Source of the DNA: Camelus ferus
Lineage: Eukaryota
Assembly: GCF_009834535.1 (NCBI RefSeq)
Contig: NC_045696.1
Coordinates: 61,072,001-61,136,000 of the forward strand
Direction: 5' to 3'
DNA length: 64,000 nt
Part shown: positions 6,333 to 27,133 of the stretch, one piece after another
How the letters are laid out: each line of letters opens with the position of its first letter
Numbering within the stretch: the stretch's first letter is position 1
Translations under genes and position numbers: made by a program
The notes under the pieces: model-generated
Told to the model about the DNA's origin: nothing
The model's database searches: none
What the model saw: the letters and a program-made list of their open reading frames with translations, nothing else

Positions 6333-6393
6333 ATGAGGCTGGTTCTCCTCCTCCTGCTGTGGCTGAGCCCTGAGGCCCCAAACCAGGAGACAG
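6333..6393 (+). CDS. SMBD1: SMBD1-like exon 1, signal peptide
   Basis: gccATG context, MRLVLLLLLWLS hydrophobic core, phase-1 donor G|gtgagg. Confidence 0.75.
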
Positions 6394-9300
6394 GTGAGGA
6401 GCCAGGCTAGCAGGTCAAAGGGACCAGGCCTCTAGTCTCTTTCATTTATTCATTCATTTGTTCAATCAACCATTTTGATTGATTAGGAAGTATCAATCAA
6501 AGTATATAATTTGATATACTTCGATATACTTCCTTATGTTCACTAATTCATTAATTAAATAATTCATTTGTTCAGACATTTACTAAGCATCTACCAATGC
6601 TTAGGGTGGTTTCTCTGTGCACCCACCTTCATATGGATAAGGTGTCCTTGGATGATTCACTTGGGAAGGTCAGCTTCGGATGGGGAGTCCAGAGGAATGT
6701 CCAGAAGAAGTTCCTGTGAGTAGAGGCAGCATGAGGCTCTAGAACATGCACAGTCGCGGGGACAGAGAGAAGATGGTGTGCCAAGCCCAGATCCAGATTA
6801 ATAGGCAGACTCACTGGGCAACTGCCAAGCACCAACCCACATGGTTGGCTGAAGTATTCCTGGAAATGCAGTGGGGTGGAGAGAGCTGTATCTACCAGAA
6901 CCTCTTTGGGGAGAAAACTAGATGTCACTGGTTGGAATACATTTTGTGGGGGAGAGCCTCAAGGGGCATGCTCAAGTAACAACAAATGTGTGGATAAACT
7001 GCTTTGTAAAAAGGACTCCTGGGGAAGAGCAGGGCTGCAGATTGGCTGAGTGGGGTTTGCAAGTTTGGGGCTGGCGCAGCATTGCTGAGAACCGCAGAGG
7101 GAGGAGGAGGCTGCCCAGGGCCCCCTTTCCACACCCTTCCCCAGCAGAGCTCAGCCTCTTCTCTGTAAACCTGTGAAACATGTTTAAAGTGTATTGCTCC
7201 CTAGGGGTGCAAACTGTTAGCATTGGGTTCTTCGCCCAGCCCTGTTTGGGGCTGTTTCTGGCCCAGAGCTTACCACTTCTACTAGCTTCTTAGTCTTAAG
7301 CCAATGGGATGGTCACAGAGGAGTCCCTGAACTACCACCACCTCCTTACTGGGAAGCGGATTCCGGGTGGGCTCACTGCCCCTCCACCAACCCGGCGGCT
7401 CTCTCCTCTCACTGCGACGCAGCACTTACTGTACAGTACGATGTGATGTTCGCTAGAGCTTCTGGAAGGTGTTTTTTTGGAGGGTCGGGAGGGGCAGGGC
7501 AGTGGAATGTATGTTTATGATCTACCATGGTACTCCGCTCAGAGGGTCGCTCGATAGAATAAAATGAATCCATGAGTGAATGGGTGCTTTGTCACCATGG
7601 GTGGCCTTTCCTTCCCGTATTGTGCTGTCATTTTACTGATAGGACCAGTCAGCTCTGTTAGGAACTGTAAATCTGTCCTGGCCTATGGATACCCTGGGAG
7701 ATCAAGGGTGAGCCCAAGGTCAATTAGGATCTTTTTAGTTAAATTAAATATAAATTATTTCATACCAGAACTACAGGGATGCCGTTCCTGCTTTCAAGAA
7801 GCTGGTGGTAAGACGAATACCTCCAGAAAGAAGACTGTAACAATAACGGAGATGGGGATTCATGCTATGTTAGACATCGAAATCAATAGGTTTTAAGAGT
7901 AAGAAGAAAAAGTTAATCCCAGTAAATGTAGTCAATCCCTACATCCCAGCCGGGGGTGAGGGGTTGTGGGGGAGTAATGTAGGAAGGCCTCTCTGGATAG
8001 ATCAAATTTATTCCAAAAAATTCTGTTTTGGAAAATTTGAAACACACAAAAATAGAGGGAATAGTATAATGAACCCAATGGGCCTATTGGCTAGCTTGAA
8101 GATTATCAACATTTTGCTCACTCTTATCCACTAGACTAAAAAAAATATATATATATAACCACAATACCTGATCAGAGCTGAAATAATTAAAATAATTACT
8201 ATTACTTAATACCTATCAGTGTGCATGTTTCTCTAATTGTCAAAAAGGCTTTTTTGCAATTGGCATATTCGAATCAGGATCCAAACAAGGTCCACACATT
8301 ACATTTAACTGGTACATTCTTAAGTCTCTTTAAATCTATAACAGCCTTCTTCCTTTTTTTCGTGCTGTTTATTTGTTGAAGAAACCAAGTCATTTGTCCT
8401 ATAAACCATCCTGCATTCTGGATTTGTCTGATCAGATCCTTACAGGTGTTTCTCTGTCCCCTGCATTTCCTGAAATCTGATAGTTAAAGTTCATTTCTTT
8501 GGGTAAGAATATACTGTAGGTGAGGCTGTGGAATTCCCCATGTCCTATTTCCTTGTGAAGGAGACATGCAACGTCTAGTCGTCTCACTTCTAATGGTGTT
8601 AAACTTGATCAGCCAAATGCCTCCATTGGTAGGTCCATTATAAAAGTTCCACTTTCTCTAATAGTTTTGGCTTCCACTGATGATTATTGCCCAGCTCCAT
8701 TTTTTCATTAGGGGTTGCCCAGTGATGGTTTTCTAATTCTGTTATTCCTTCTGCATTTGTTGGCTGGAGTTCTTCTATAAAGACCTTTTCCTTGTCAACT
8801 CTTTGGTTTGTGTGGAAAGTCTGGATAAATAAGTCTTCATTTATCAGTCTCAGAATAATGAGCTAGTTCCTGAGCAACCCTAGGAAGGTTGAGTTTAATC
8901 AAGGCCTTAAAGGATAAGAATGTTTTCTTCTAGTGGCTGTGGGAGGGAAGGGCTTTCTAAGCAGAGGATATAGCTTGAACAAACAGCTCAAAAGCAGGAG
9001 TATGAAGGGTATTTAGAGAATAGCAGAGATAGGTGGCAAGTGCAACCAGAGGCTGTTTGAAGGCGAACCCTGAGCGTGGATGTGGTGGGAAAAGCAGGGA
9101 AGCAGTCAGGATTGCTGGTTCTGCTCCCAGCTCTGTCACCCGCTCAAGCATGACCTAATCAACATGGCTTTTCCATTTTTTGATCAGTGTCTTTCAAACT
9201 TTTCTGGCCACAATCCACATAAATATGTTTTATACTGTGACCCATTACTAACACACATGGATATAAAAACAAATAAAAATTAAAAAAAAAAAAACCTTAA

Positions 9301-12300
9301 GCAACTTACACTTACATGTACAATGTATGTGGATGTGAATGAAAACCATATCAGTAAACAAAGAATGAAGCCATCAAGTCATCAGCCGCTGCTGCCACCC
9401 CCCATTGAAGACAAGCCTGCAGCCCAACCTTGGCAGCCACTCACAATGGTGTTCTCTGAGAGGACTCAGAATAAGAAAGGACAGGATACTGGCCCTAGAC
9501 AGCTAGGTGCTTGTCAAAGGAATGAATTCAATGAGCCCAAATGTTTGCTTCCTCCCATACATAGAAAATCAATAAATTCTTTTAACTTGAGATGCCTGGT
9601 TTTCTTTAGAAAACAAGTAATCTTTTATTGTTCCAACTACCTAGTCTTTGTTGTAAAGCTCCTGTATATCCTAGCTCCTCTCCTGCCTCTTTGGAGCAGT
9701 CCCTCAGAGCCATCTGAGAGGCTGTCATCCCGCTCGAATCCTCCCTCCAAATGAAACATAACTCTCAACTTTTAGGCTGCGCATTTATTTCAGTTGACAT
9801 GGATATTTTCTATTCTATTCCATTCCACTCCATCCCAGACTGTTAAAATAAATGCTGATCATGACCACTGAATTGATCTCTGACTTGCAAATGGGCCATA
9901 ACCCTCATTTGGATAGTCCCTGGGGCTCTTCTCCAGCTCTAGTCCTTTGTAATTCCTGGTCTTGGTGACAGCCTTACACCGGACCAGGCGCTCAGGAAGG
10001 GGGATGATGTGAGAAGGGAAATCGATCATTTGCAGGAGGCTCCCAAGCAGAATGTGAGGCAGAAGCCAGACCAAACTCAGAAGCCTCCACCCAGCCCAGC
10101 CCACTGTCACCTTGAGAGGTCTGCCCTCCCTGGGCTGCTGCTCCCCTTTCACCAGACACCTATCTGCTGGTCCCCGTCTCCACAACAGGCTGGGTTAGCC
10201 ACTTAGCCCCACATCCTCTCACTGGCCTAAGCCCTGTTGATCTTGTCAACTTTGGAAGGTCCTCAAGTTTATCCCTAAACAAAGCCCCAGGCAGGAGCTA
10301 ACCAAACAGGAGACAATTGGGAAGGTCAAGGTAAAATAAAGAGCAGCTTTGAGATTCCCAGGCTTGAACTGCACCTAGACCCCAATCCACCCAAGCCACA
10401 GACTCACCAGGTAAATGGGGCCATGGTCCCTACCTGCTAATGCCTTGCTCTCCTCATGTCTTAAAGAAGATAAACCCCCTCATCTTGTAGTGGGTAGATA
10501 TTGATAAGATAATAATTGAATTGAGCACCTTGGGAAAATGATAGGAGCTGGGGTTGGTGAAACTGTTTTGTAAATCAGGACTGTCTTGATAGCATCCTTA
10601 CAGGTACAAAACTTCCAAATTTTGATCAAGTTTACTTTGTTCTTTCTTTTGTCACTTGTGCTTTTAGTATCATATCTGAGAAACCACTGCTTAATCCAAG
10701 TTCTTGACAATTTTCATCTATCTTATTGTGAAGGAAAAGCCCAGATGGGCTAACAAGCTAAGTCACAAATCTAAGTGTGATAAGTGTTGGGTTACTGATA
10801 TAAGTTCTGCTGGGCTAACTCGTAAATCTGAAGTTTAGTGTCAGTTTACTGGGCTAACAAGCTAACTCGTAAATCCAAGCTCAACAAGTGTCAGTAACGT
10901 GATCTGTTCCAAATTGATAAGCTCCAGTGTACTGATTCCTTGCTTTTTGTTGTTTGAACCTTATTGGCTAATAGCCCCATACTTGTAATTAACCCTATAA
11001 AACCTCATGCGCATGTCTTGGAGGTGCTCAGAGCTTTGGAGCAGAAGCCCCTCTGAGCCCGCCGGCGTAATAAATCTGAGTACTCCAACCCTCCGAGTGG
11101 TGCTTGTTTCTTGGCTGGCCTGTCGTTTCTGTAACATTTCTGCCTAAGCATTTCATAATTATATAGTTTTAATATTTAGATCTATGATCTGTTTTGAGTT
11201 AATTTTTGTATATGGTGTGAGGTAGAGAATTCATTCTTTTGCATATGACTATCCAGTTGTCCCAACACCATTTTAAATCTGTCTCTTTTTAATATTCCTT
11301 TTTCTCCAGACAGCTGCTCCCAACCTCAACCCCTCTGCTGCCTTGGAATGGATTACCACTGCAAGAGAGGAAGCTGCTTCTGTGATGAATTCTACCATGT
11401 GGTACCAGACTGCTGCCCAGACCACCATGCTCTCTGCAACTCTGATAACTCACATGCAGGCTCCTTTCCACCCCCAGCAGAACTGGACACTATGATGGAC
11501 AGAGGCAAGCACCTTACATGTCCTTCAGGCCAAGGCGAAAATGTGAACTGAATGGCTCCTAAGGTCCCTGACAATCCCAGGACCCTGGCATTTTGTCCAT
11601 TTCATGTCAAAAGTGCCTACACATTCCTCCCAGCTTTCTTTCCCCACTGCTCCTTGCCACCTGCTGTTCCCCTCTGTTGGTGGTTGGGGAATGGCGTGGG
11701 GAATGGGGTGGCTGAACTCCATCTAACTGCCTCCACTTCTCTTGCAGTATAGATGCCTTTTGACCTGTTCCATGTAGACTCCTGAGGGTGGACAGGAGTC
11801 TGCAGAGAGGTGCTGCGGATGTTGGGCAGCAGCAAGGCATGGGAGACAGGGATGAGGACAGGAGATTTCACCCTGTTTCTCAGCTCCTAGGACTACCAGC
11901 CTGGTGCCGCAAATGGTGCTGAGGATGGAGAACCCACCAAGCCCTGCCAGAAACAATCCAGACTGGATGCAGAGTGTGGTGAGTGCCCTGGAGATGCTCC
12001 TAGAAGGGGTGGCTGGCAACCTGCTCCTTCCTCCTGGACCTTGAGGCCCCAAAGTCAAGAAGTAGTTACCAAAGGGGGAAAAGAGCCTGAGCTGGGCAGA
12101 GGGCCACTGCAGCCATGGTTTTAGGGTAGAAGCCAGGATTCCTGCCCATGAACACTGACACTGAATTTCATCTACTTCTCGTGTGTCATGAAATATTATT
12201 CTTCTTTTGTCTTTTTTCAACCATTTAAAAATGTAAAAATATTCTTAACTTGTGATTTGTATGAAAAACAGACAGCAAGACAGATTTGGTCCACAGGCTA

Positions 12301-12776
12301 TGGTTTGGGGCTCTCTGCCATAAATCATCCTGTGTTCTTTACTTTCCTTCTGTGTCTTGGCTTCAGCCCTGACCTGTCCAGCTCGCTGCCCAGTACTGGA
12401 AGAGAGGCCTTGGCCCTCAGCCTAGTGGCATTGGGCAGAAAGAAAGGCAACATAGTGAAAAGGAAAGAATTTGGACTTGAGAGCCAGATAGACCTGTGTT
12501 CAAATCCTGACTGATCTCAAGCCTTCAGCCTTCTGAGACTTTCTGAGCCTCCGTTTTCTCATCTGTGTCCTAGAGCTGGCCTTGTAGGACAGTTGCAGAA
12601 GGGCCTGGTCCTTGGTGGATGTACAATGAGAGAGCTGTTATTTGGGGACACGTAAATAAGCTGGAGAGGGAACAGGCCTCTGCTAACTGCTCACTTAGGT
12701 CCAGCAGCTTCTCCAAACCAGCCTCCCGGGGATGCCCCTCTCCGTCTCCGTGAAGGGACTCAAGAAAAGAGCCTGA
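6333..12776 (+). CDS. SMBD1: Somatomedin-B domain-containing secreted protein, 4-exon model join(6333..6393,11310..11504,11884..11978,12699..12776), about 142 aa
   Basis: Hand-spliced ORF: MRLVLLLLLWLSPEAPNQET/DSCSQPQPLCCLGMDYHCKRGSCFCDEFYHVVPDCCPDHHALCNS...MMDR/APRTTSLVPQMVLRMENPPSPARNNPDWMQSV/VQQLLQTSLPGMPLSVSVKGLKKRA*. Exon phases are compatible (1,1,0). Position next to MUC20 matches my recollection of mouse Smbd1 / human SMBD1P. Confidence 0.75.
9334..9799 (+). mobile_element. ERV1-type solo LTR
   Basis: TG...CA ends with imperfect inverted repeat (TGTGAATGAAA / TTTCAGTTGACA) and a perfect 4-bp TSD TGGA. Confidence 0.85.
10727..11136 (+). mobile_element. ERV solo LTR inserted in an antisense L1 fragment (about 10605-11275)
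   Basis: TG...CA ends, internal repeats of gggctaac, TATAAAA at 10996, AATAAA at 11069; TSD not clean. Confidence 0.75.
11310..11504 (+). CDS. SMBD1: SMBD1-like exon 2, somatomedin-B domain
   Basis: Acceptor tttttctccag; Cys pattern C..CC.G.D..C...C.CD......DCC.D...C; 195 nt, phase 1-1, if the GC donor AG|gcaagc is used. Confidence 0.75.
11884..11978 (+). CDS. SMBD1: SMBD1-like exon 3
   Basis: Acceptor ccctgtttctcag, open frame, donor GTG|gtgagt; 95 nt, phase 1-0. Confidence 0.65.
12180..12325. mobile_element. MER58-like hAT DNA transposon fragment
   Basis: ttttttcaaccatttaaaaatgtaaaaa...gatttggtccacaggctatggtttg. Confidence 0.55.
12699..12776 (+). CDS. SMBD1: SMBD1-like exon 4 (terminal)
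   Basis: ctaac branch-like motif and cacttag acceptor; VQQLLQTSLPGMPLSVSVKGLKKRA*. Confidence 0.65.
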   Translation, partial: VQQLLQTSLPGMPLSVSVKGLKKRA

Positions 12777-13551
12777 CGCCTTCCTGACGCTCCTCCCCCA
12801 CCTGGTGCCAGCAGGGACCCTGGAGCTCTGCCACCCCTCCTGGGCCTCCTGGGGCCATGGTCACTGGGCCCAGTGGTTCCTGTGTCCCACTGCCATCCTG
12901 TGTGTTTCCGCATTGGTTCAACCAGAGGAAAATGGAAACCTGCAGTTGTCGTAAACACATTTAAGCGTGCATAGAATCAGCCATACAAAGTATAAAACAG
13001 AGATTTGGCTCATGGTGTTTACTGCTTTGTGATGGTTACAGTGAGTATAGCAAACATTTCTTGAGAGTAGAAAGTAAGAAGCTGGCACTCCTGTGGCTAA
13101 GTGATTCTTGCCTCTCTCCTCAATAATCCTTCCTGGGCTCCATCACACTGCGTGTAAGTCCCGAAGTAGCCTGACCTGAGCCCTGTGGCCTCTTATCCAT
13201 GCCCTCCTCTTCCCATGGTGACAGGAGAGGCAGTACTTCCTCTGGTGTGTGGGGAGTGTCCTCCCTGGGCCTCCTCGTGCGCAGGACTTCAAAGCACTAG
13301 GAAAGTAATGCCGGGGGCCTTTGGGTCTGCTGAGCCAATCCTTCCTTCCTAAACCTGCTCTTCCCCCTGCTCTGTGCATGGTGCCCTGTCCTCCATCCTC
13401 TTAGACTGCAGAATCTCAGGGTCATCTTCTACTTGTCTCTGCCCCTGGTCTTTTTCTGCAGGTGCCAGGTCTTTCTAGTTCTACTTCTCAACATGGTTCA
13501 CATCTGCCCCCTTTACAATCCTACTGCTGAAATCCTAGGCCATAGCCTCTT

Positions 13552-13700
13552 TTTGTTATTATTGTTGGATTTTTGGGGGTGGGGGTGGAATTAGGTTTAT
13601 TTATTTAATCATTATTATTTTTAATGGCGGTACTGGAGATTGAATCCAGGACCTCATGCATGCTAAGCACGCACTCTACCACTGAGCTATACCCTCCCCC
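13552..13700 (-). mobile_element. tRNA-derived SINE (camelid Vic-1-like)
   Basis: Reverse complement of GGGGAGGGTATAGCTCAGTGGTAGAG...; TSD gccata(g/a)cctctt. Confidence 0.85.
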
Positions 13701-14069
13701 GCCATAACCTCTTAATAGTCCTCTTGCCCTTACTGGTCTCTACCCACATTGTACCACAGTGTACTGCCCAAAGCAGAGCTCTGGTGTTGCCAGTTCCCCG
13801 CTCAGAAACCACCACTGCCTTCCCATTGTCTCTAGAATAAGACTAACTTCCCATGCATGGCAGGCAAAGTCCTCTACCACATGGCCCCAGGGCACATTTC
13901 TGGCCTTATCTCCTGCTAGTCCCCTTCCCACTCCTCTGTTACAACTGAGTGGAATGACCAGTTACCCCCACCCAAGCCTTGCTCTAGGCCTTTGCTAATC
14001 TGAACCCTGCTTTTAGTAAATGATAATAGCATAGGATGCCCTATGTCAGCACAGAGTCCAGTCATTAGC

Positions 14070-14575
14070 TAGTGGGTCTGTTTAAGCTTAGTCTCTCTGA
14101 AAGAAGAGCCTGAATAAGTTATTTAGGAACATAATCCTGAGGAGCTGGTGAGGGAAATGGGAAGTGGGAGGGAAGAAGGGAGAGCCAGCACAAAGAGGTG
14201 TTATGTAGTTGGCCCCTCCTATGGCTGATCGGTTGTTGAATCCTTGAGACCTTCTTTGATACTTGAGAAGCCTTATGAGATGTGTCTGAGAACCGTCTGT
14301 CCCAGGAATGAAATGGGCAGCATCTGTCCATGGGCTCCTATTCCTGGTGGCTTACAAGTCGCTCCACAGGAACTAATTCTCCCAGTTTTTTGCTGCTGTA
14401 TGTGAGGGCTGAGCAGCTCCCAGAAGTATCCCAAGACTTGGCATCAGGGAAACCCTGGGACAGAGGCCAGATGACACATGGCAAGGCCCTGCCTGGTCGC
14501 TCCTGGGACACTGGTCCCTGCAGCAGTACCTAGAGTAGGAGGCAAGGCCAAGAGAACTTGAAGTGGGGTACAAAA
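14070..14575. mobile_element. Old ERVL (LTR16-like) LTR remnant
   Basis: gaagagcctga..agttatttagga...gaagtgggagggaag pattern; recognised by eye only. Confidence 0.45.
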
Positions 14576-14729
14576 AGTGTCCGACCCACTGACATCTAGG
14601 AACACATGCTTTATCCCTTCAGTTCTTTCAGCCACAGATTTCTTTCCCTGCCCAGGGCCTTGCGAACTTAGATGATTCTCACCACATCTCCTAACCTACA
14701 CATTCTGTGTACACTCAACATTTTGAACC

Positions 14730-15166
14730 TGTGGGAACCCACTCAAATGCCCCAGAGTTGGTATAACGATTATTTTAAAGAGGAAACATTTGCCTACAGA
14801 AGATGCAGAAAGAAATGTTGTCTGAGCTTCCCCTACCTGACTAAAGCAGAGCCTTCTAAAAATACAGCTGCTATTAATCCCCCTCCAAGGGGTTTTCCAG
14901 CCAGTTAGCTGCCATGGAGACAGAGTGCCCAACAGAACCTTCCCTGCTTTCCCCACAGGAGCCTTAAGCCCCACCCCTTTGTTAAGTGTGGTATATAAAC
15001 CTTTGCCTCTGGTTATTCAGTGAGTTACTCATTACGGAACAACTCCCTGGTTCACATGTAAATCAACTTTATCTTTTCTCCTATTCATCTATCTTTTCTC
15101 AGTTAACTTGCAGGCTTCCAACCACTGGACCCAAGCTGAAAGAAGAAAAAGTTTTTCCTCCCAACG
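14730..15166 (+). mobile_element. ERV1 solo LTR (MER34/39-like)
   Basis: tgtgggaac ... gtttttcctcccaacg, TATATAA near 14992, 4-bp TSD AACC. Confidence 0.75.
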
Positions 15167-16212: not shown

Positions 16213-18364
16213 ACTAGCCTCCTATGCTCATTCAGGGTGAGAGCTGAGTTTGGCTGATCAAAATGGCCAGGAACTTTTTGGATAAGAGTATTATGGTCCA
16301 GGGCCAACAGTCATGTGCCCAGGCTTAGAAATTCTCCAGATACAGAGGAAGGTGGACTAGACAAAGTTCAGCAAAACCCAGGAAAGCATTCAGCCAGGCT
16401 TCCCTCCAGCAGGTTCCTGGTTAGATACCATCACAGTCAACTGGGCTAGAACTGAGCTGTTGATCACTTAGATGATGAAAAGAAAAAGGAAATGGAGAGG
16501 GGAAGTCCATGGGGGGGGGGGGGCTGGAGAGGGTGGGGGTGGTGAAAAGGGCACCTGAAGTACCTCTGTCGGTAGGTTAAGCCCCTGGCTGCTGGAATGA
16601 GGAAGTCCCTGTCTTAGCTGGGGTGGGGCAGACAGGTGGACCAGGAGGGGAAGAAGGTGGCAGAAAGGAGCTGCATTCTTTCTGGATTTCTCTTCTGTCT
16701 TCTCAGGTCACTCATTACTAGATGGGGTCAAACAGAATTCAGGTCATCGCTGTGGCCCTGGGGCCTCCCCTCCCCACCTAACACGCCCAAGGGGAAAAAT
16801 CCATGCTCCCATTTTACAACATGAAGGACTGAGGTTGAATGGGAGGTGGAAGGGCTCAGCCTGTCAGGAGTACTCTGCAGATTAGCAGTGTAGTTGCAAT
16901 TGAGGTCCAAGAGTTCTGACTCCAAGTGCTGGGTCGTGTCCCAGAGGGACCCCCTCAGCCCCTTCTCATACAGTCTTCCTTCCTCGATGCCCTGGAATGA
17001 CTCTCTTCTCCCTCCAGACTGCAGAGCCCTTTATCCCAACACAGGGTGAAGTTCTAGAAGACAGTGTCTCACACCAAATGTAGGACCTCAGACTTCATGG
17101 CCAACAGGACCTCAGAGGCCTTATTGACAGGGGCCCAGAGAAGGCAAATAACTTTTCCAAGATTACACAGCTCCTGGGCTACCATTAAGGAAGAAGCTGG
17201 AAACAGAAACTAGACCTTTTGATTCCACATTAAAGTACATTCCAGCCATGAAATTTTGTGATTTCTTGACGCTGGTCCAACAAGCTTTCCTCTACTCTAG
17301 AGCTGCTTTCATCACAAAACTCTTGCCCTGAAATTCCCAAGGTACTTTGTCAGGTCACTGGCTGTGGCCATACAGCTTATGGCCTTGGAACTTTGAGAGG
17401 ATAAGATTCTTCGGCAGAGCATTTGGAAATATATTCTGCAGCCTCATTGACTCCTTGTGGCCAAATCCCCAAGTCACCCTCACACTTCCCTCCTCCCAGG
17501 CCCTGGAACTCAGATCATCACCTTTCCCTTTCCCTTCTTCCAGCCAGATTCTTCCCCACCCCGCACCTCCAGTCTGGCCCGGGACATGGTCCTGGCTCTG
17601 GCTGGGATGCAGGATCAGAGGATGTGAAGACAGAAGGATGTTAAGGATCAGTCCTGCCCTACACTGGAGAGTCGTCTCCTCCAGACCTCAGGGGGCTGTT
17701 TTTTCTCTCTATTGCTTGAGGATCAGAGTGGATGTCAGGGCTCTCACTCACTTACTGAACACCTGAGATGTATATGTTCTCGGTGAGCACCGAGTATGTA
17801 GCAGACACTATGTTAGAGCCTTACTATCTCATGTGATCTCACATAACAGCCCAGTGAAGTAAGGATTATGCCCATTTTACAGATCAAGAGGTTGAGGTTC
17901 TGAAAATTCTTTAATTTGCCCTAGATTATAGAGCTAATAAAGTCTAAGATTAGGAATAAAACCCAGATCTCTCTAACTAAAATCCCAAACCCCAAGCACA
18001 AGGGGATAGGGCAGGGGGGAGAGGTTGTGGGAAGGGGGAAATGTGTGTAAAACAACATCTTCCACAGCCTCCTTGGCTGCAGGACCCAGGGGGTGAATAT
18101 CAGTATGGAAATACCATATCTTCAAATCAAACTTCAGAGAGGAGAGGTCAGTGGGCAAGGGCGGGCAGGAGGGTTAGCTTGTTGACAACTCTGTCACACA
18201 ACCTGCCAGCTCTCAGCATGTGCACTTGGCTGCATCCTGGAAACTACCCAGTCACACCTAGGCAGGTGGCCCGCCCCTGCTCCCCGGGTTGAGGAAGCAG
18301 GAAAGGTGGCAGTGAGAGGCAGTGGCAGGTCTGCTGGGCAGTGGTGGCCGGAGCCCCAGCCAGG

Positions 18365-18440
18365 ATGGGCTCTTTCTGGGGCCTGACTCTGCCCCTTTTC
18401 TTCTTCTACTTGGGGGCTGGGGCCCCCAGGAGCTCTGCAG
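18365..18440 (+). CDS. MUC20: MUC20 exon 1, signal peptide
   Basis: MGSFWGLTLPLFFFYLGAGAPRSSA G|gtaagg. Confidence 0.92.
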
Positions 18441-19411
18441 GTAAGGAGGTGAGAGGAGGCCTGTGCACTTCTCTCCGGACAGGGCTCTGGGTGGGAGTTA
18501 CTGTACTGCAGCCCTTTGTGGGTGAGGGTAGCTCTCTTGGGTTAATTACAATCAACCCTAAAGCCATATGTGGAGTATTACTGTGGTTGATAAAGAGTAC
18601 GCGGGTAGCAATGGGTCAGCTTAAGCATGTATGACCTGCAGTCCATACAAATGATGTCATTGTGAAGTTGCTGTAGGTTTGTCTTTATGCCCGTAGGGGT
18701 GTGAATACTTAGAGCAGGGAGAGTGCGGGGGAGCAGGGAAGTGCAGGCTAGTGATAAAAATCTGAATAAAGCCAAAGAATATGGCTTGATGAGATTCTTT
18801 CTCCTCCGAGTTTATTTTCTAGCACGGATTTCCTTTAAAAAACAGTTTTTGTGTGAAAAGTGTTACTGTAACAGACTGTTTGCGGAGAGTGAATCCTGAG
18901 AGAGGCAAGGCTTTTATGAGAGAGGAGAGCGAACATTGATCTGTAACAGGAACTGTGCTGAACTTATCACATGCATTATCTTTTTTAAAAAGAGACTTAA
19001 TTTTATAGAGAAGTTTTAGGTTCACAGCAAAACTGAGCAGAGAGTACAGAGATTTCCTATGTACCCTCTGCCCACCCCTCACAGCCTCCTCCACTGTTAA
19101 CATTCCTCACTAGGGAGGTACACATGTTACAAACAAGGAAACTACACTTTCAAATCATTCTCATGCATCATCTTTTTTTTTAAAGGCTTTATTTTTTAAG
19201 AGCAATTTTAGCTTCACAGCAAAATTGAGAGTAAAGTGCAAAGATTTCCCATATACTCCCATCACTGTCCTTTTAATCCTCACAATTACCCTGTGAGATG
19301 GATACAATTTTCATTCTTACCCTCCCCACGCCCCCACCCGTTCCCAAGGTGAGCAGACCGAGGCTTCTTACCAAGATTAAGTAATTTATCTGCAGAGCCA
19401 GGATTTTATTC

Positions 19412-19456
<45 letters not shown>

Positions 19457-22400
19457 CTAACCATTGGACCACACTGCCTCCAGCATGCACTCATGCTCTG
19501 CCAGGCTTGTGCTGCACACTTAACATTTAATTTAATGCAATGTTCACTACCCTATAAAATAGGGGTACCGTTTTACAGATGAGGAAATGCAGGCTTGGAG
19601 CCAGGAGACTTGGTGGGGTCACAAGGTTGATAAGCAGCAGAGCAAGCAGCAGAGAGGGGATTCAAACTCAAGGTCCAAAGTCCACATGCTTTCCTCCGCA
19701 CCAGTTTGATCTGAGGAATGGGTCAGGAGAGCTGCAACATTCTAGAGCTGTAGAGGGCCAGGTGGGCTTTGCTTTGTTTGAGAAGACCCCTGATGGGTAA
19801 GAGACTTAGCTATGAGAATGCAGGAGATGAAGGGGCTATGGGTTTAGGAAGCATGAGGTTTCACAGCAGGATAACACCACCAGGCTCTCAGGAAGGGAAG
19901 AAAATGTGGCAGGAGGGGTCAGTGGACAGAACCCACAGTTTGGGCTTCTGGCTGTGTGGGCTGACAGAAAGGCTCTGCCTCCATCTGTGGGGACTGTGGA
20001 GGCCCAGAGAAATAACTCAGGCTTTGAAGTGGGGAGAAGGAAGTCTATTCCCGTAAAAGTGTGATTTGTGTGTGTAGATGCCATGACCCACCTAATACGC
20101 CTGTGGGTACAGCCTGAAACTCAGGCTGTGTTAAAGTAGGTGTGTGCTCTCAAGTGACTCCTTGAGTGGACGTGGTCAGAGAGGGATGCTTAGTAACCAC
20201 CTGCAGGCTCTGGAGCTTCCTGATTCCCCTTCTCTGGCCCTTACCACCTGGCAAAGCAGGTATTGTGACCCTCTTTCAAAAGGGAAGAAATGGAGGCTTG
20301 GGGATGTCTACTGCTGGCTTTGCTGGTAGGAGACAGAGTCAGGATTTGAACCAGTAAATCATCAGACTCCAGAGTTGGTAAGCAACAGATGTGGAGCTGG
20401 AACCCAGTCTTTTGCCTCCTGGCCCAGTGCTCCTTCATCATTCAGTAGGAGACACAGGAGGACAAGCTGAGGACCAGTCCTGACACCCTGGGTAGAGGTG
20501 ACCTCGTGGTCCTGAGCTTCCTCTGGGTTCTTGGGTTCTTTTGAGCCAGTAGATTTCAGGAAAGGCCATCCTACACCATCAGAACCCTGAAAAAGGGGGC
20601 TTATATTTTGATCTTTTCCTTCCAAGAGTAGGGTTACTAGATGAAAGACAAGCCTTCCACTTAAATTTGAATTTCAGTAATGAAGTATTTAAACTGTAAG
20701 TATGTCTCAAATATTACATAAGAAATACACATACTAAAAATTATTTGTCATTAAAATAATTCCTTGTTTATCTGAAATTCAAATTCAAATTTAACTGGGC
20801 ATCATGTATTTTTATTTGCTAAAATGGCAACACTTCTCAAGAGGCACCTTGGCTCACTTACAGAGAGAGCTCTTCCCCCTTGGTAGACAGGAGAGGCACT
20901 CTTGTCAGCCCATAAAGGATCCTGCTGTAGCCTCCCTGCCCCAGGCAGTGAGTACCTGCTGGCCCTCCAGTCACACAGCCTCAGATGGTTGGCCAAGCAA
21001 GCAGAGATGTTCTGTCCTATGGAGAAACACTAGCGGCATCTCTCTAAAAGTGCAGTTTTGCCTCACCTGGCTCTCTGTTACCTGTGGAAGATGCCTGGTA
21101 TGTCGTTTCTGTCGTGCTGGGGTCTCATCCCTGTCGTCTCAGTCCCCCATTCAGGAGAGGCTTGAGCAGGGGTGGGGAGCTTGCCTTTTTCCTTTGCTGG
21201 AGCCCCAGGGACTCTGCCTGCTCCCCTCTTTTGTGGCAGCCACCATCCACACTGTCTTGGAGTTTCCTCTCCCCCAGTCCCCCCAGCTACCTCTAATAAA
21301 CACAAAAGCACAGGTGTTTCTTGTGTTTGAAGGGTTTTTACTTCCATGAGGAAACATTCACTGGATGAGGAAAGAATTGATAGAAAAGTGACAAGGATTC
21401 TTTCAGAAAGTTCCGAGAGTTATGGTGGCTGCTCCACAGTCTTGGCTCACTTGGACTTCTACCTTCTTTGTTCCCCCTTGAAGCTGGATCCTGGCCTCAC
21501 ACATTTGCTCTGATGACTTCAGGCTAATAATCAACTAGATTCTGGGGCTTGCTTGCCTCAAGTGGGCCATCAGAGGACATCCGTCAGGGTGATTCCAGTT
21601 CCGCGGCTGCCACGTGGGACTGGGCTTCCTGACAGTGCTTCCTTCTTCCTTGAATATATAGAAAAAAAGAGGGTAAAACATCCCCCCTCCCCACCCTAAT
21701 CCCAGCAGTGCCCAGGGCATAAACACAAGAGCTTGTGTGAAGGCCGTGCCTGGGACTCACAGCTCACAAAGTTGGTCTTACCCAACACAGGCCCCAGTAC
21801 CAGTGGATCAGGCCACACAGAGGTTCCTGCTGTGACTTCGGGGAGCAGGACAAGCTCTGAAGGAGTCTTCTGGACCACTGACCTCACTAAGACCTCTGAT
21901 AGAACCTTAATCCCAGACAGCATCATTTCGGAAGCAGAGACCAGGGAAACTGAGACCATTTTTCCTGCAACACAGATCAGGGCCCTCATAAAAAGAACGC
22001 TTTCCAAGTCTACGGTTGTGATCACTACTCCTGTGGAAACATCAGCCACAAGCGGCAGCCCCACAGGAAGTGGAGTGACTGCAGCTGAGACTGTTACATG
22101 CGATCATCTCTTGAAAGCCATCTTTGACATGCCTTTGCACCTTTGACAGCTCTGAAGAGGCAAAGAGAGTCATGGTTAATGTCTTGACATGGGCGCACAC
22201 CTCCGCAGAAGCCGAGGCCCTGTCCTCGGAGAGCAGTGCCTCTTCTGACAGCTCAGCTTCAGCCTTCACCTCCTTCCAAGGCCTGTCCCCTGACATCACT
22301 GCTCTGGCTAAAGCCTTGGCTGCCAACAACATCACCAACATCGAGGTTACCAACTGCAGCGTTCTAGATATAGAAACAACTGCCCCCGTCCCTAGGACTT

Positions 22401-25400
22401 CAGATGTGGATCACAGCCCCACGGGAGGAAAGGCCCTGTTTGCCCCTGAGACGTCAGCTTTGCTTGACTCCACTGAAGCAAGATCACACCTCCCCAGGAC
22501 CACAACCTCTGCTAAGGTCTTGTCAGCAGCCAGTGCCACAGCATCAGCCACACCTGATGTCACATCCACCATCGATAGCACCGCAGAAGTTGAAACAACA
22601 GCAGCCAAGGCCACCACCCCCAGTGGAAACTTGGTGACAGTCAGCATGAACCCCTTAGAAGAAAACTCAGTGCTCTCTGTTGAGACAACAAGCCACACGG
22701 AGGACTCAGGAGCAGTTACAATCTCCAAAGGGGCTGGGTCAACAGTGGGCAAAGTGACTTCCCCAGCTAGGTTCTCAGCCACAGTCTACAGCCTCTCGGA
22801 AGTAGCCACTATCGTGAGCTCCACCCTCTCAGAGCCTTCTACAACAGACAGCACATTTAGTGGGACTGTTCCCATCAGCAAGAGCCCTCTTCCTTCTGTC
22901 CATCTGACTACGGCCAGCAGCAGCCAAGAAAAAAGCACCACCTTAGCTAAGACCACAGCCTCAGTGAAGACTTTGAAGACAACCAGCACAGCTCAGGGGA
23001 AGCCCTCAGCAGCCATGCCCACCACTGCTCAGACAAGGTGGACAGATGTCACTGCAGGTAAGTGGCTCCTCCATGTGTGATCTGTGGGGATTTGGGGTTT
23101 GGAGTCTCCAAGATGTCTGTATGTTTAAGGAGCAGGGAGAAAGGAAGGACTGAGAGGCCTATTCTGAGTCCTGTCTTTAATGCTGCTTCTTTATGATCTC
23201 CTAAGTGCTTCTTACCAAAATCAGAAACAAGCAGGGCTAAGGTGGTGGATGGAAGAATTCAGTGTTGGCAGTGTGGAGAAATGGTTTGTGACCTTGTCTC
23301 AGCCCTTAACCACCTGAGTGACCTATGACAGATCCCTCTCCCTCTCTGGGCCTCAGTTTCTCCACGAGTAGCTGGAGGGGGTTGCAATGAGGTCCTTTCC
23401 AGCTCTGCCCTTCTACGAGCATAACTGTTGAGTAGCTATTGGGTACCAGGCAAGGACACAGATTTTATTTAAGACACAGCTCTCATGCTCTGAAAGTCTC
23501 TGGTTCAGCCAGAAGTGCTCAGAAGGTACCATATGGGCAACTGGTCCCAGTTGCTGCCCTCCGAGCAGCCGGGACCTCTTGGAAGTGGAGCTCGCTGGAT
23601 GCACATGTTGGGATTGGTGCCATAGATGGTGATTTAAACTAAATAAATTAATTGGGTAAAAGTTGGGGAATTTAAAGTCACATCTCTGAGAAAACAGATA
23701 CTTCTCAGGGCAGAAGTCCCTTGTCAGAGGCTGCTTGGTCAGGCCAGCTCTTAGTCAGCCTGTAGCCTTCACTTCCACTTCCAGTCACTCTGTCCTCATG
23801 TCTCATCCCCACGGTATCCTCAGCTTGCCCTATCTTTCTGAGTAGGTGAAATAATATTAATCACAACCGCTTTATTGAATATCTTGCATTTCAGGCAGAG
23901 ATGGTATAAAAGTATTTCACAACCAGTAAACATTGGCACCAGCTGAACGTTCTCTCTGATGTCAGGCAGTGTACTATGAGTTTGCATGTTATCTCTTCTA
24001 ATTAAGCCTTTGAAACCACTGTTTGAGGTGGGTATTCACCCCATCTGACAGATGAGGAAACAGATTTAAAGACGGTAAAAAGGTAGCAGTGAGATTCCAA
24101 ATGAAAGTCTGATTCCAAGACTCATAGTCTCCCACTGTGCTTTTACTTGTAAAAGCTCAATTTATTGGGGGAAGGGTATAGCTCAGTGGTAGAGTGTGTG
24201 CTTAGCATACACGAGGTCCTGGTGTCAATCCCCAGTACCTCCATTAAAAACTTTTTTTTAATAAATAAATAAACCTAATTACCTCCCACCACCTAAAAAC
24301 AGAAAAACAACAAACATGGACACTTCCTAAAAAAAAAAGTCAATTTATTAATATATATATTTTAAATGCTTTATTATTTATTGATTAGATGATATACTCA
24401 CATGATTTAAAATTCAGTAAGTGTAAAAGGGTACATACACCATGAAATGTCTTTCTTCTACGCTGTCCCCCAAGTAGCCAGTTTTCCTTGCACACGTAAC
24501 CGATGGCATCACTTTCTTGTGACTCCTCTTCTGTACGTGAAATATGTATATGGAAGCATAAAGAAGAAATCTATATCTATATAATATAGATAGTATCTTT
24601 CCTCTTCCTTTTTATGCAAGGGGAATGTGTGATAAACACAGATCTGCTTCTAGTATTCCATTTTGCTTTGCCATATTTTACTTAACCAGTCCTTTATGGA
24701 TGGACATTTTGGTTCTTTCCAGTATTTTGTTATGACAAATAGTGCTTCAGCAAATCTTACATTTTTCACATATGTTATTTTCTGTAGAATAAACTTCTAG
24801 ATGTGCAGTTGCTGGATCAATTCTAATAGTAATCTGATAGGATGAAACAACTACAGGGTGGCAGGTAAAGGCAGGAAGATCAGGGCTTAACAAAAGACAG
24901 AAGTTGCCTACCAAGCTGCTAAGTCAGGAAGGCTGAATTGAAAGCCCTCCACCAGCTTAGAGCTGGACGAATCAGCCGAGCCCATCCCCTCAGAGAGCCG
25001 GCCTCTCTGCAGCATTCTCTCAGGCTGGCCCCTTCCCTGACAGCCCCATTCAGGGCCTCCAGGCCTTGAGAACATTCTAGATCCACTTTCATTTCTCCTT
25101 CCTCACAGCGTTCTTTTGACTTCTCCAAGTGTGGATTGGGTCTTTAGCCATTTCCTTCATTATTGCTGGGAAGACACATCCAATTATTGGAGAGAAGAAA
25201 TCCTCTTTCTCTTTGTGGTGAGTAGCTGTAAAATCCTGTGTGAACACAGACACATTAACCCATGTATGCAAAAGGGGGACAGAAGCTGGGTAGCAGAGTT
25301 CACATCTTTTTTTTTTAATGGGGGTACTGGGAATTGAGCCCAGGACCTTGTGCATGCCAAGCATGTGCTCTACCACTGGATATACCCTCCCCCAGACCCC

Positions 25401-27133
25401 TCACAGTTCGCATCTTGATTCCTGAACTGACTTACCCATATTTTCGTCTTCCTACTGTTTTCAACTTGCAGGTGGGGATGGAGGCTTCCTCCTCCTAAGG
25501 CTGAGTGTAGACTCCCCAGAAGACCTCACTGACCCCAGAGTGGTGGAGAGGCTGATGCAGCAGGTGAGTGGGCACTATCTGTGCTGGGGAGCAGAGCAGA
25601 GTGGGAGGTTCTCTGGGACTCTAGGGAAGATCTGCAGGATACAAAAGAGCCACTGCTACACTTGGGAGGGTATAGTTTCTTATGGAGAATTAGGAGCAAA
25701 ATCTAAGGATCCCTGCCTGACGTTCCTTTTGCCTGTTTTTCCCGAGTTCTGAATTCCCCTTCTCTGCAATGTAAAAAATTATTTCTCTCAACCAAAATTC
25801 CTCAGGCCCTAGGAAGATCAGGCCTTCTGGCTCCTGGGAGTAGGTCAATGATACTAATGGGCAGATAGGCAGGACTTTTGGTTGCAAGTGGCTGCACCCT
25901 ACTCATCATTGCTTACACAGACAAAAGGTATTGGCTAAGAAACTAAGAAGTGGCTATCCAGCTTCAGTTATGGCTGTATCCAGCAGCTCAAACTTGATCA
26001 TTAGGATTTCCTCTTTCTCTCCTCTTAGCTCTGCTCTCTTCGTTCCTGAGTCTCTTCTTATATAAGGAAAGGTGGCTGTGACAGCTGTAGATTCAAAAGG
26101 CACTGCCCTCTCCCAAGATCTGCATATCACACTAGGGAAGGACTGATCTCATTGACTAGAACAGCCACCACAACTGACAGTCTGACTGGAACCACATGGA
26201 ATGGGAAGGAGAATCCCCAAAGGAAACAGACATGCTAGACAGGGGGAAAAAAAACTCTAGATGGGGACCAAGATTATATTTATACAGTAAGTTGGGAAAA
26301 TTCTCCTAAAACCCAGATCACTGGACAAAGCTTCTAGGGGTGTGGAATTCTGGGATCAGGGCTTTGAGGGATGGTGTGAGCCATTGGGAAGTTAGAATGA
26401 GTCAGCTCAGGCTAGCTCTTGTGCCCACATCTTGCTGCCAGGGGATGATGGGAAGAGGGAATGTCTGGGCCCTTGAAGTTCTCTTAGTGGAAGGGGGTGC
26501 CTATCAGGACTCCTGTAATAAGGAGTTCCCTGAACATGGCTTGGGGTTTTGAAGTGAGACAGCCAAATAAATGACAAATGCCCACAGTGCATGATGATCC
26601 AAGTAGCAAGTGTGAATCCTAGTTGAATCCTAGCCAGGAATGTGTCAGACCCAAGCCCCTCAAACTGGAAACTATTTTAGGAGGTCAGAAAGAAACCAGG
26701 GAGATAGGAGCAGGTCAGGAGATGAGGTGCAGGAACCAGGCCGTGCAGGTGTTGGGCGTCAGTTCTTGTTGGGAGCTGGCCACTGGCGAGGGGCTCAGGG
26801 GTCAGACAAACAACAAGCTTTGGAAGGCTGGTAGATCTGAGTGTAGATTCCACTTCCTAACAGTGTGACCTTCGGTAAGTTACTCCATATTACTTCCCTT
26901 CCCTGTTAAATGAGGTTACTGTGAAATTTAAATGACATGAAGCACCTCACCCATGCTCAGGAGGTGTCCCTGGCCTCCTTATATGTCCTCTGTCCCTTCC
27001 TGTCCTTGGCCTGTGGTGAGTTCACAGGTCAGAGGGGCTGGAAGTACCACCTGATCCTTTTGCCCACCAGCTCCACCGTGAACTGTGCTTGCCTCTCGTC
27101 CGTGTCTCCCTGCTGCGTGTCAGGAGGAGCTGA
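18365..27133 (+). CDS. MUC20: Mucin-20, join(18365..18440,21791..23057,25472..25563,27071..27133); +1 frameshift near 22130 (pseudogene or assembly error); 498 aa if corrected
   Basis: Recognisable MUC20 motifs: MGSFWGLTLPLFFF, AIFD-LCT-DSSEEAK, SSESSASSD, GGFLLLRLSV.SPEDLTDPRV.ERLMQQLHREL...VSLLRVRR*. Confidence 0.93.
19411..19455. repeat. (CA)n microsatellite in MUC20 intron 1
   Basis: About 21 CA units. Confidence 0.95.
20625..20835. mobile_element. MER33-like DNA transposon
   Basis: ttaaatttgaatttcag...ctgaaattcaaatttaactgggcatc inverted-repeat core. Confidence 0.6.
21791..23057 (+). CDS. MUC20: MUC20 exon 2, Ser/Thr-rich mucin domain, frameshifted
   Basis: Acceptor acacag, donor G|gtaagt; covered by two overlapping ORFs (21733..22146 and 22124..23080); length 1267 = 3n+1. 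Confidence 0.9.
24167..24338 (+). mobile_element. tRNA-derived SINE (camelid Vic-1-like)
   Basis: A/B-box-like GGTATAGCTCAGTGGTAGAG...TCAATCCCCAG, A-rich tail, TSD aaaag(c)tcaatttatt. Confidence 0.88.
25307..25393 (-). mobile_element. Short tRNA-derived SINE (Vic-1-like)
   Basis: T-run followed by gggtactgggaattgagcccaggacc...ctctaccact; flanked by near-duplicated cagagttcacatctt / cacagttcgcatctt. Confidence 0.8.
25472..25563 (+). CDS. MUC20: MUC20 exon 3
   Basis: ttgcag| GGDGGFLLLRLSVDSPEDLTDPRVVERLMQQ |gtgagt; 92 nt, phase 1-0. Confidence 0.93.
27071..27133 (+). CDS. MUC20: MUC20 exon 4 (terminal)
   Basis: cccaccag| LHRELCLPLVRVSLLRVRRS*. Confidence 0.9.
   Translation, partial: LHRELCLPLVRVSLLRVRRS

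Follow-up and report, generated by a model that had tools for sequence, protein, structure and literature searches.

The SMBD1-like gene and MUC20, which adjoin each other on the + strand of the window (the whole 64,000-nt stretch of Camelus ferus DNA analysed here), look like secreted-type genes built on one plan, and on balance we favour the view that their tail is a SEA-like half-domain which closes its sheet by pairing. Each gene would combine a signal peptide, a swappable phase 1-1 cargo exon, encoding a Cys-rich somatomedin B (SMB)-like knot in SMBD1 or a mucin stalk in MUC20, and a tail of ~55 residues. The tail, a strand-loop-helix-strand drawn from two exons with a phase-0 intron splitting the helix, would be half of a ferredoxin-like (SEA-like) two-layer fold, unable to close its sheet by itself. 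Two tails may join via an antiparallel strand 1-strand 1 seam, each strand 2 flanking the partner's strand 1, and the paired tails would then form the 2-3-1-4 sheet of an entire SEA domain, the two helices lying together on one face. SEA domains cut themselves at a point matching the end of the MUC20 chain. Because it stops there, MUC20 resembles a ready-made SEA 'alpha fragment'. Such a tail would serve as a module for non-covalent dimerisation or docking, either within the secretory pathway or extracellularly, rather than as a membrane anchor or a cytoplasmic tail.

The first-pass annotation had described the same four-exon plan in both genes, and this holds: the exons can be placed, their phases agree and splicing is in frame (Table 1). 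A phase-1 signal exon is followed by a 1-1 cargo exon, a 1-0 exon of 92-95 nt and a last exon of 63-78 nt, and all the peptides quoted in support (VPQMVLRME, WMQSV/VQQLLQ, LSVSVKGLKKRA, FLLLRLSVD, RLMQQ/LHREL and VRVSLLRVRRS) are found in the translations. Secreted proteins as a rule have a phase-1 signal exon and 1-1 cargo exons, so these two features say little. The informative part is the phase-0 intron within the helix of a ~55-residue tail in two adjoining same-strand genes.

Table 1. Coordinates in the window of the SMBD1-like, MUC20 and MUC4 features discussed in the text.
Feature	Position	Strand	Details
SMBD1-like exon 1, signal peptide	6333..6393	+	61 nt from ATG, phase-1 end, GT donor
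SMBD1-like exon 2, Cys-rich somatomedin-B-like cargo and linker	11310..11504	+	195 nt, phase 1-1
SMBD1-like exon 3	11884..11978	+	95 nt, phase 1-0; own HMM E 3.2e-14
SMBD1-like exon 4	12699..12776	+	78 nt with stop; own HMM E 1.1e-13
MUC20 exon 1 coding part, signal peptide	18365..18440	+	76 nt, phase-1 end
MUC20 exon 2, Ser/Thr-rich mucin cargo	21791..23057	+	1267 nt vs 1266 expected for a 1-1 exon
MUC20 exon 2, extra-base site and stop	22129..22146	+	frame +1 to 22131, frame +2 from 22133
MUC20 exon 3	25472..25563	+	92 nt, phase 1-0; own HMM E 2.2e-18
MUC20 exon 4	27071..27133	+	63 nt with stop; own HMM E 1.5e-06
MUC4 exon cited in the first-pass annotation (..IRIIQLLLTEDKNASSADVNAS)	35907..35980	-	74 nt, phase 1-0
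Following MUC4 exon (VAYRLRNLE..)	34741..34805	-	start 34805 set by AG acceptor

The four SMBD1-like exons are spliced in frame to a 142-aa product, which can be aligned over its full length with 11 annotated orthologues; the exon 1 product aligns with orthologue N-termini. The signal peptide, the Cys-rich SMB-like exon and the KMVLQMVLR..SISVKGIKKRA tail place it in the SMBD1 group. The exon 2 donor is GC (AG/gcaag) rather than GT. Exon 3 encodes strand 1 of the tail, a Pro/Ser loop and the first helix half, and exon 4 the second helix half, strand 2 and a basic tail. MUC20 likewise has four exons, at the positions proposed by the earlier reader. Its exon 3 encodes strand 1 (FLLLRLSV), an acidic loop (SPEDLTDP) and the first helix half, and exon 4 the second helix half, strand 2 (VRVSLLRV) and a basic end. 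Identity to MUC20 of Vicugna pacos (P0007) is 94-96% in the four larger pieces of the tblastn alignment and 84% in the piece from the signal exon. The gene has the signal peptide, the Ser/Thr-rich exon and the FLLLRLSV..VSLLRVRR tail of MUC20, and it adjoins MUC4.

The frame of MUC20 exon 2 is broken in the window. Both cargo exons had been described as phase 1-1, which is true of SMBD1 exon 2, but MUC20 exon 2 is one base over, and this 1-nt frameshift leads to an in-frame stop at 22144-22146. Of 33 columns invariant among the 11 orthologues, 4 differ in the SMBD1 product of the window. Its residue 49 is Tyr where all 11 have Cys, so that, unlike the SMB-like exons of the orthologues, exon 2 has lost one Cys, and Pro replaces the invariant strand-1 Leu at module residue 9, which is among the lowest-error contacts of the predicted heterodimer. 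Both genes look damaged in the window genome, and the tail module may therefore not work there.

Both tails are conserved. A search with the SMBD1-tail profile returned 17 proteins, every one an SMBD1 orthologue ending in the tail (bats, sloth, carnivores and rodents), and 80 distinct MUC20 tails were gathered. Annotated isoforms of 78 aa (P0118, P0138) consist of signal peptide and tail alone. Strand 1 is the most conserved stretch of each of the two tail families. Mouse Smbd1 (formerly Gm933; LOC381043) and human SMBD1P are orthologues of the gene upstream of MUC20. Rodent SMBD1 tails are 49-52% identical to the bat reference tail in six of seven cases, with 60% for the kangaroo rat (P0111).

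The description of the SMBD1 cargo as an SMB domain needs correcting. A Cys-rich pattern is common to exon 2 and the somatomedin B proteins (vitronectin, ENPP, PRG4), with a partial match to Pfam PF01033 over profile positions 9-39 of 40, but exon 2 stays below the threshold: the three orthologues scanned all score under the cut-off of 23.1 bits (12.8, 16.4 and 17.4), and the window exon gives no PF01033 match at E<=1.

The idea of a tail that forms half of a ferredoxin/SEA-like fold finds support in the MUC20 model, but not in that of the SMBD1 tail alone. AlphaFold2 models the MUC20 tail with a pLDDT of 81.9 and a pTM of 0.57, as a helix (residues 22-39) with extended, unpaired flanks. In a structure search against 48,161 chains this model seems to resemble the N-terminal half of SEA domains: its two best matches are 57-residue N-terminal fragments, from GPR110 and MUC1 SEA entries, and by our reading 9 of the best 50 matches listed are SEA or SEA-like. 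The last residue of the model, 53, aligns with the final residue of the MUC1 fragment, 1097. The SMBD1 tail alone gives two helices at low confidence (pLDDT 64.4, pTM 0.28), and the best 50 matches listed for it are long helices and coiled-coil-type assemblies, with no SEA domain among them.

A complete SEA domain has the order beta-alpha-beta-beta-alpha-beta, with a self-cleavage motif of the G/SVVV type between strands 2 and 3, and after cleavage it persists as a non-covalent two-chain domain. SMBD1 and MUC20 both end after the first strand-helix-strand (53-57 residues), and neither has the complete fold. The self-cleavage motif is absent from MUC20, in which the chain ends where the MUC1 N-terminal fragment ends and nothing follows. 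A mucin stalk followed directly by strand-helix-strand is common to MUC20 and the self-cleaved SEA proteins MUC1 (PDB 6bsc, 2acm) and GPR110/ADGRF1 (8hc0). Unlike these, SMBD1 and MUC20 encode half a domain, with no second half, cleavage motif, membrane helix or cytoplasmic tail, and their tails have no sequence match to Pfam SEA. The second half would have to come from another polypeptide.

The suggestion that the fold is completed by dimerisation, and that SMBD1 and MUC20 may heterodimerise, passes at the level of models. Predicted with ESMFold2 without the tail alignments, the MUC20/SMBD1 tail pair reaches an ipSAE of 0.64, and the three controls, unrelated natural proteins of 51-56 residues, reach 0.01-0.02. 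Contact agreement among the three runs is at least 91%, with a partner pLDDT of 70-72. Among solved complexes 51 of 78 reach the pass mark, and among mismatched pairs 2 of 108 do; the test is also passed by 7 of 44 neighbouring genes drawn blind and by close cousins of a true partner (10 of 12). A pass does not single out the family member that binds, and it may stem from the predictor's memory of solved two-chain SEA structures. The complex model supports binding without showing it.

In this model the lowest-error contacts join MUC20 7-13 with SMBD1 13-7 (i+j=20), MUC20 45-48 with SMBD1 13-10 (i+j=58) and MUC20 12 with SMBD1 48-49. These contacts imply the strand order M-b2 / S-b1 / M-b1 / S-b2 (M, MUC20; S, SMBD1; b, strand), a four-stranded ferredoxin-like sheet, and the predicted assembly has the SEA/ferredoxin strand order of the two-chain SEA domains of MUC1 and GPR110. 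The helices would meet through MUC20 residues 28-29, 31-32 and 35-36 and SMBD1 residues 29-30, 32-33 and 36-37. This pairing makes the intron after MUC20 residue 31 equivalent to that after SMBD1 residue 32, and with the same phase 0 the intron positions of the two tails appear equivalent, as had been supposed.

From this complex we infer that the tails may pair in vivo, where the natural partner may be the tail itself, the product of the neighbouring gene or a third protein. It is also conceivable, if somewhat unlikely, that they pair with themselves only, as MUC20 homodimers or oligomers and SMBD1 homodimers, and that the heterodimer is the predictor fitting together halves of one fold type. 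The predicted sheet is pseudo-symmetric over its central seam, which makes a tail homodimer geometrically possible, and the passing of close cousins points the same way. Oligomerisation of the C-terminal part of MUC20, reportedly described in the MUC20-MET work of Higuchi et al. in 2004, also counts for self-pairing. A dolphin model (P0011) keeps its MUC20 part and has SMBD1 exon 3 in another frame. Humans keep MUC20 and have SMBD1 as the pseudogene SMBD1P only (PMC10170684), so no heterodimer can be obligatory. The charge of the SMBD1 tail disfavours self-pairing compared with pairing to the MUC20 tail: mean net charge is +6.5 (range 4 to 9) for SMBD1 tails, against a near-neutral +0.7 (range -2 to 3) for MUC20 tails. 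The SMBD1 tail alone is also not modelled as strand-helix-strand, while in the predicted pair its residues 7-13 and 48-49 run antiparallel to the strands of MUC20, with contacts of the strand type.

A bolder form of the half-domain reading, which we think unlikely, is that one SEA-type domain has been split between neighbours, MUC20 providing the 'alpha fragment' and SMBD1 the strongly basic complementary half. The SMB-like head would then be hung non-covalently on the mucin stalk, and where SMBD1 is missing (humans, for example), the partner of MUC20 would be MUC20 itself or a membrane protein carrying an orphan half. If true, this would explain why MUC20 is called now secreted, now membrane-bound.

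The first-pass annotation had taken the two genes to be tandem paralogues, for which sequence comparison gives no support. Five hhalign runs of the SMBD1 tail against the MUC20 tail gave no significant profile-profile similarity, the test that the first-pass annotation had set for itself (P 0.22, 0.18, 0.17 (0.38 global), 0.14 (0.96 global) and 0.37), and in the window neither the SMBD1 HMM nor the MUC20 HMM finds the exons of the other, with cross matches at noise level. The MUC20-tail profile, searched against 1,835,955,588 proteins (E<=0.001), gave 47 matches with no SMBD1 among them; read by sequence, these are 44 MUC20 proteins or fragments and three bacterial repeat proteins. Pfam SEA (PF01390) at E<=10 matches none of 33 MUC20 tails, 17 SMBD1 tails or 7 full-length proteins, and PDB sequence searches with the tails returned nothing relevant. 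No Pfam family covers either tail.

These negative results count for the view that the tails are unrelated amphipathic C-termini, adjoining by chance in genes of a commonplace secreted plan, with the SEA likeness and the complex as short-peptide artefacts. The helical, low-confidence SMBD1 monomer and the passes among blind-drawn neighbours fit it too. We consider it distinctly unlikely, given the gap between the tail pair and its controls, the same-phase introns at equivalent helix positions, and the fact that the best two of all chains searched were SEA N-terminal fragments and not the far commoner ferredoxin-like folds. In addition, each of the three segments shows a local maximum of sequence similarity at the register that the model gives. 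With its offsets (0, +1, +3), the profile-profile BLOSUM sum comes to 11.5, against -29.2 +/- 9.9 for column shuffles, about 1 in 10,000 of 20,000 reaching the observed sum, although +3 was picked over +2 after both were seen, and +2 gives P 0.033. As column shuffling destroys hydrophobic periodicity, the score reflects a common pattern rather than ancestry. From neighbourhood, strand, plan and intron position, and not from sequence, we infer that SMBD1 and MUC20 are old tandem paralogues. The earlier interpretation is partly supported, on computational grounds only.

To our knowledge, the sole mapped functional region of MUC20 lies at its C-terminus and is said to bind MET on the cytoplasmic side. 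Higuchi et al. in 2004 (Mol Cell Biol 24:7456) reportedly described this 'MET-interaction' region and took it as a cytoplasmic binding tail. We take it to be the last ~50 MUC20 residues, here encoded by 25472-25563 and 27071-27133; in our reading the same stretch would be a folded half-domain of extracellular type, with pairing as its main task. The published picture, in which MUC20 is a membrane mucin and these residues are a cytoplasmic tail binding the multifunctional docking site of MET, agrees with the title under which PMC1552070 cites the 2004 paper, and with reviews which class MUC20 as a transmembrane or membrane-associated mucin (PMC6780288, PMC3056801). MUC20 stands apart from the other mucins. 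Another group's inventory lists it as secreted, with neither SEA nor VWD domains (PMC1552070). MUC20 has a signal peptide, and by eye its sequence contains no hydrophobic stretch of membrane-helix length, FLLLRLSV being broken by Arg. The tail also gives a confident model that looks like a SEA half of extracellular type, and we suspect that the exposed strands of a half-domain could grip sticky baits non-physiologically. The published picture seems highly improbable to us.

In the literature we found no description of the MUC20 C-terminus as SEA-like, and nothing in print on a tail common to MUC20 and SMBD1. Smbd1 is named as a marker of pulmonary ionocytes (PMC11364754), and in the texts read, mentions of SMBD1/Gm933 are limited to marker or gene lists, with neither the tail nor a link to MUC20 discussed. 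If the tail is a pairing half-SEA, MUC20 would become a truncated member of the SEA mucins, its oligomerisation and membrane association would gain a concrete, testable structural basis, and the MET model of its C-terminus would need another look. It would also provide a first functional hypothesis for SMBD1, an almost unstudied mouse ionocyte marker, and a natural case in which a half-domain gains its complement in trans and phase 1-1 exon shuffling swaps the cargo exons.

The same module had been proposed to have spread to MUC4. The 74-nt phase 1-0 exon and the VAYRL exon that follows it are real, but phase alone backs the spread: the SMBD1 HMM matches the reading frame of the 74-nt exon at E 95, and that exon is absent among the MUC20 HMM matches up to E 100. 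Neither tail module has a detectable likeness to it. The VAYRL exon ends at one of two candidate GT donors, after 34779 or after 34741. The 74-nt exon sits between the C8-3_MUC4 and EGF exons, and the VWD and C8-3_MUC4 domains of MUC4 lie on the - strand, downstream of MUC20.

Three genes lie in the window, in the order SMBD1-like (+, 6333-12776), MUC20 (+, 18365-27133) and the 3' part of MUC4 (-), the last being identified by matches to VWD and C8-3_MUC4 at ~42-45 kb, with an EGF-like match below threshold at ~32.6 kb. When the SMBD1-like gene and MUC20 were rebuilt from the sequence, every exon size, phase and peptide quoted by the first-pass annotation, and the exon plan as a whole, proved correct. 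The splice sites of the SMBD1-like gene are canonical, the exon 2 donor being the sole exception, and its 142 aa product aligns end to end with proteins annotated as 'somatomedin B domain containing 1' in bats, sloth and rodents. The identity of MUC20 to its Vicugna pacos counterpart is 94-96% in the four larger tblastn pieces and 84% in the piece with the signal exon, which marks the genome as camelid-like. MUC20 intron 1 contains a (TG/CA)n microsatellite (window ~19385-19551), visible as VCVCVC or THTHTH in translated frames.

Exons of the two neighbouring plus-strand genes, and the MUC4 exon compared with them (window coordinates)
Feature	Position	Strand	Details
SMBD1-like exon 1	6333-6393	+	61 nt, phase 1
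SMBD1-like exon 2	11310-11504	+	195 nt, phase 1-1, GC donor (AG/gcaag)
SMBD1-like exon 3	11884-11978	+	95 nt, phase 1-0
SMBD1-like exon 4	12699-12776	+	78 nt, stop included
MUC20 exon 1	coding 18365-18440	+	76 nt, phase 1
MUC20 exon 2	21791-23057	+	1267 nt
MUC20 exon 3	25472-25563	+	92 nt, phase 1-0
MUC20 exon 4	27071-27133	+	63 nt
MUC4 exon quoted by the first-pass annotation	35907-35980	-	74 nt, phase 1-0; next exon starts at 34805

Secreted proteins generally have phase-1 signal exons and symmetric 1-1 cargo exons, and the presence of such exons in both genes therefore carries little weight. The informative part of the common plan is that two adjacent genes on the same strand both end in a tail of ~55 residues in which a phase-0 intron cuts inside a helix. 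The layout of the tail is the same in both: a hydrophobic strand, a Pro/Ser/acidic loop, an amphipathic helix, a second strand and a basic end. Strand 1 is the best-conserved stretch in the MUC20 family, for which 80 distinct tails were gathered, and also in the SMBD1 family, where all 17 proteins returned by the tail profile were SMBD1 orthologues. No Pfam family was found for either tail when the window exons, the full orthologues and every tail were scanned, and PF21824 ('MUC20') spans only the 19-residue repeat. Two public proteins of 78 aa (P0118 and P0138) comprise nothing but the signal peptide of MUC20 and its tail module; they skip the mucin exon, a phase 1-1 exon whose loss preserves the frame.

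The first-pass annotation had proposed that the two genes are tandem paralogues, with significant profile-profile similarity of the tails as the evidence to look for. Judged by that evidence, the homology claim fails at the level of sequence. Alignment of the two tail profiles with hhalign, using growing alignments, gave P of 0.22, 0.18, 0.17 (0.38 global), 0.14 (0.96 global) and 0.37, with probabilities below 0.5% throughout. Each tail HMM, searched against all 3085 open frames of the window, matched its own two exons only, the exons of the other gene appearing at E ~70 or being absent. Among 1,835,955,588 proteins the MUC20-tail profile had 47 matches at E<=0.001, and SMBD1 was absent from these; by inspection of the sequences, 44 are MUC20 or MUC20 fragments and three are bacterial repeat proteins. 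A sequence search of the PDB with both tail profiles returned chance rows only (lipoxygenase, RxLR effector and DAP epimerase; E 0.7-2.6). In the ESM Atlas each tail had a 225-aa, 50-member chordate cluster, perhaps the same one for both, as its first feature match (0.80 and 0.76, below the 0.9 counted as more than a lead); for the Atlas's own model of SMBD1 the structure rows were CLEC20A, a NIDO protein, and AcrB and MacB subdomains. Paralogy of SMBD1 and MUC20 is plausible on gene order, gene plan and intron position, without support from sequence similarity.

The three bacterial proteins (P0145, P0158 and P0159) are large repeat proteins that match the profile in its loop and helix, and their repeated unit, 'DLTDPR/STDPRV..LL', occurs in 6-10 stretches in each. 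The match is taken as chance likeness to helical repeats. A similar tail-like pattern had also been claimed for a MUC4 exon. The exon exists, with the phase described, and sits in a stretch without a Pfam family between the C8-3_MUC4 and EGF exons; neither tail HMM detects it, its frame appearing only at E 95, and no evidence places it with the two tails.

Structure prediction gives a different kind of evidence. The AlphaFold2 model of the MUC20 tail, built from 33 aligned tails, is confident (pLDDT 81.9, pTM 0.57) and contains a single helix (residues 22-39), the flanks being extended and not paired to each other. Strands 1 and 2 do not lie side by side in a ferredoxin-like fold, so unpaired flanks are as expected for half of such a fold. 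Foldseek returned no match to this model in the PDB at E<=10. In the VIA exhaustive search (48,161 chains), the matches listed for the MUC20 tail include a type II protease SEA domain (3.3), the dystroglycan proteolytic domain (3.2), the C-terminal MUC1 SEA chain (3.1), TMPRSS6 (3.0) and Gpr126 (2.8). The literature searched nowhere calls the MUC20 tail SEA-like, and two MUC20 papers offered nothing useful on the C-terminus, oligomers or docking. The SMBD1 tail alone (17 sequences) was modelled with two helices at pLDDT 64.4 and pTM 0.28, and the 50 matches listed for it consist of long helices and coiled-coil-type assemblies, with no SEA domain among them; as a model, the SMBD1 tail taken singly is uninformative. 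The suggestion of a 'half-SEA' module completed by dimerisation is supported by structure prediction for MUC20; the SMBD1 tail by itself yields no such model. The reading of the tail as a putative truncated SEA-type half-domain, which would serve for pairing and be joined to interchangeable cargo, is partly supported, in each respect by prediction.

The two tails have also been modelled together. ESMFold2, run without tail alignments on the MUC20 tail (P0015) and the SMBD1 tail (P0003) of one bat, gave the pair a score of 0.64, against 0.02 for the best of three controls. Among 78 solved complexes 51 attain that mark, compared with 2 among 108 mismatched pairs. Contact agreement between runs was at least 91%, and partner pLDDT at least 70. 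The pairing of MUC20 with SMBD1 proposed from the first reading thus passes a controlled prediction, at the level of a model, and close relatives of a true partner pass as well. Such a pass may stem from predictor memory of two-chain SEA structures, which would itself reveal a likeness to SEA. The model supports binding between the two tails and is not proof of it.

The lowest-error contacts place MUC20 residues 7-13 antiparallel to SMBD1 13-7 (i+j=20), MUC20 45-48 with SMBD1 13-10 (i+j=58), and MUC20 12 against SMBD1 48-49, and therefore predict a sheet in the order MUC20-b2, SMBD1-b1, MUC20-b1, SMBD1-b2. This pseudo-symmetric sheet has the 2-3-1-4 order of the ferredoxin-like/SEA fold, and the MUC20 C-terminus adjoins the start of SMBD1 strand 1. 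From the helices, MUC20 residues 28-29, 31-32 and 35-36 and SMBD1 residues 29-30, 32-33 and 36-37 take part in the interface. The two helices thus match at a one-residue offset, and the intron after MUC20 residue 31 would occupy the same structural place as that after SMBD1 residue 32. The predicted pair in this way reproduces the alignment of RLMQQ/LHREL with WMQSV/VQQLLQ (introns at the slashes) made in the initial reading. This predicted equivalence of intron position is judged the strongest single argument in favour of common descent.

In the model-derived register (offsets 0, +1 and +3), each offset lies at a local maximum or close to one, and the BLOSUM sum between the profiles is 11.5, compared with -29.2 +/- 9.9 for 20,000 column shuffles, about 1 in 10,000 of which attain 11.5. 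The shuffling destroys hydrophobic periodicity, and +3 was picked after seeing +2 (P 0.033). The register test shows a common pattern, not ancestry.

The pseudo-symmetry of the predicted arrangement makes dimers of MUC20 with MUC20 and of SMBD1 with SMBD1 geometrically possible too. Mean net charge is +6.5 for SMBD1 tails (range 4 to 9) and +0.7 for MUC20 tails, a difference which favours mixed pairing. In human, MUC20 is kept and SMBD1P is listed as a pseudogene (PMC10170684). A dolphin 'mucin-20' model (P0011) has a frameshifted SMBD1 exon 3. Both facts argue against an obligatory heterodimer. The available parts of the SMBD1/Gm933 literature searched mention the gene only as a marker or in gene lists, and the ionocyte literature searched makes no statement either way on co-expression of Muc20 and Smbd1.

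In the window, the SMBD1-like product departs from its orthologues at 4 of 33 columns invariant across 11 of them: Gly21Asp, Cys49Tyr in the Cys-rich domain, and Lys91Ser and Leu94Pro in strand 1. Leu94 is module residue 9, which takes part in the lowest-error contacts predicted for the dimer. The reading frame stays open, and the 18 SMBD1 proteins found include none from even-toed ungulates or whales. The gene may be decaying in the lineage of the window. MUC20 exon 2 has one surplus base near 22129-22133 relative to the alpaca protein, so that its 1267 nt are not divisible by three; the frame is +1 to 22131 and +2 from 22133, and a stop comes into frame at 22144-22146. Either the lesion is real or the assembly is in error here; an exon-2-skipping isoform of the P0118/P0138 type would be unaffected.

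Several public gene models at the locus are irregular. The dolphin model begins with SMBD1 exon 3 in another frame, a hyena MUC20 isoform begins with an SMB-like exon, and two cat models run exon 2 into the intron. In the models concerned (P0011, P0048, P0110 and P0001) the two genes are mixed or the GC donor is read through, which hints at read-through transcription or annotation trouble. Four RNA-Seq runs from one study, labelled as reproductive-system metagenome, contain 34-68% of the words sampled from 11300-12790, more than exons alone would give; the words are unaligned and no conclusion is drawn. Further along the window, at ~55173-60678, identical weak HMM matches recur every 455-456 nt, in a stretch (54-62 kb) whose GC and AT skew is strong. 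The pattern resembles that of a long tandem array repeating every ~456 nt, which is presumably the repeat exon of MUC4 as read on the - strand.
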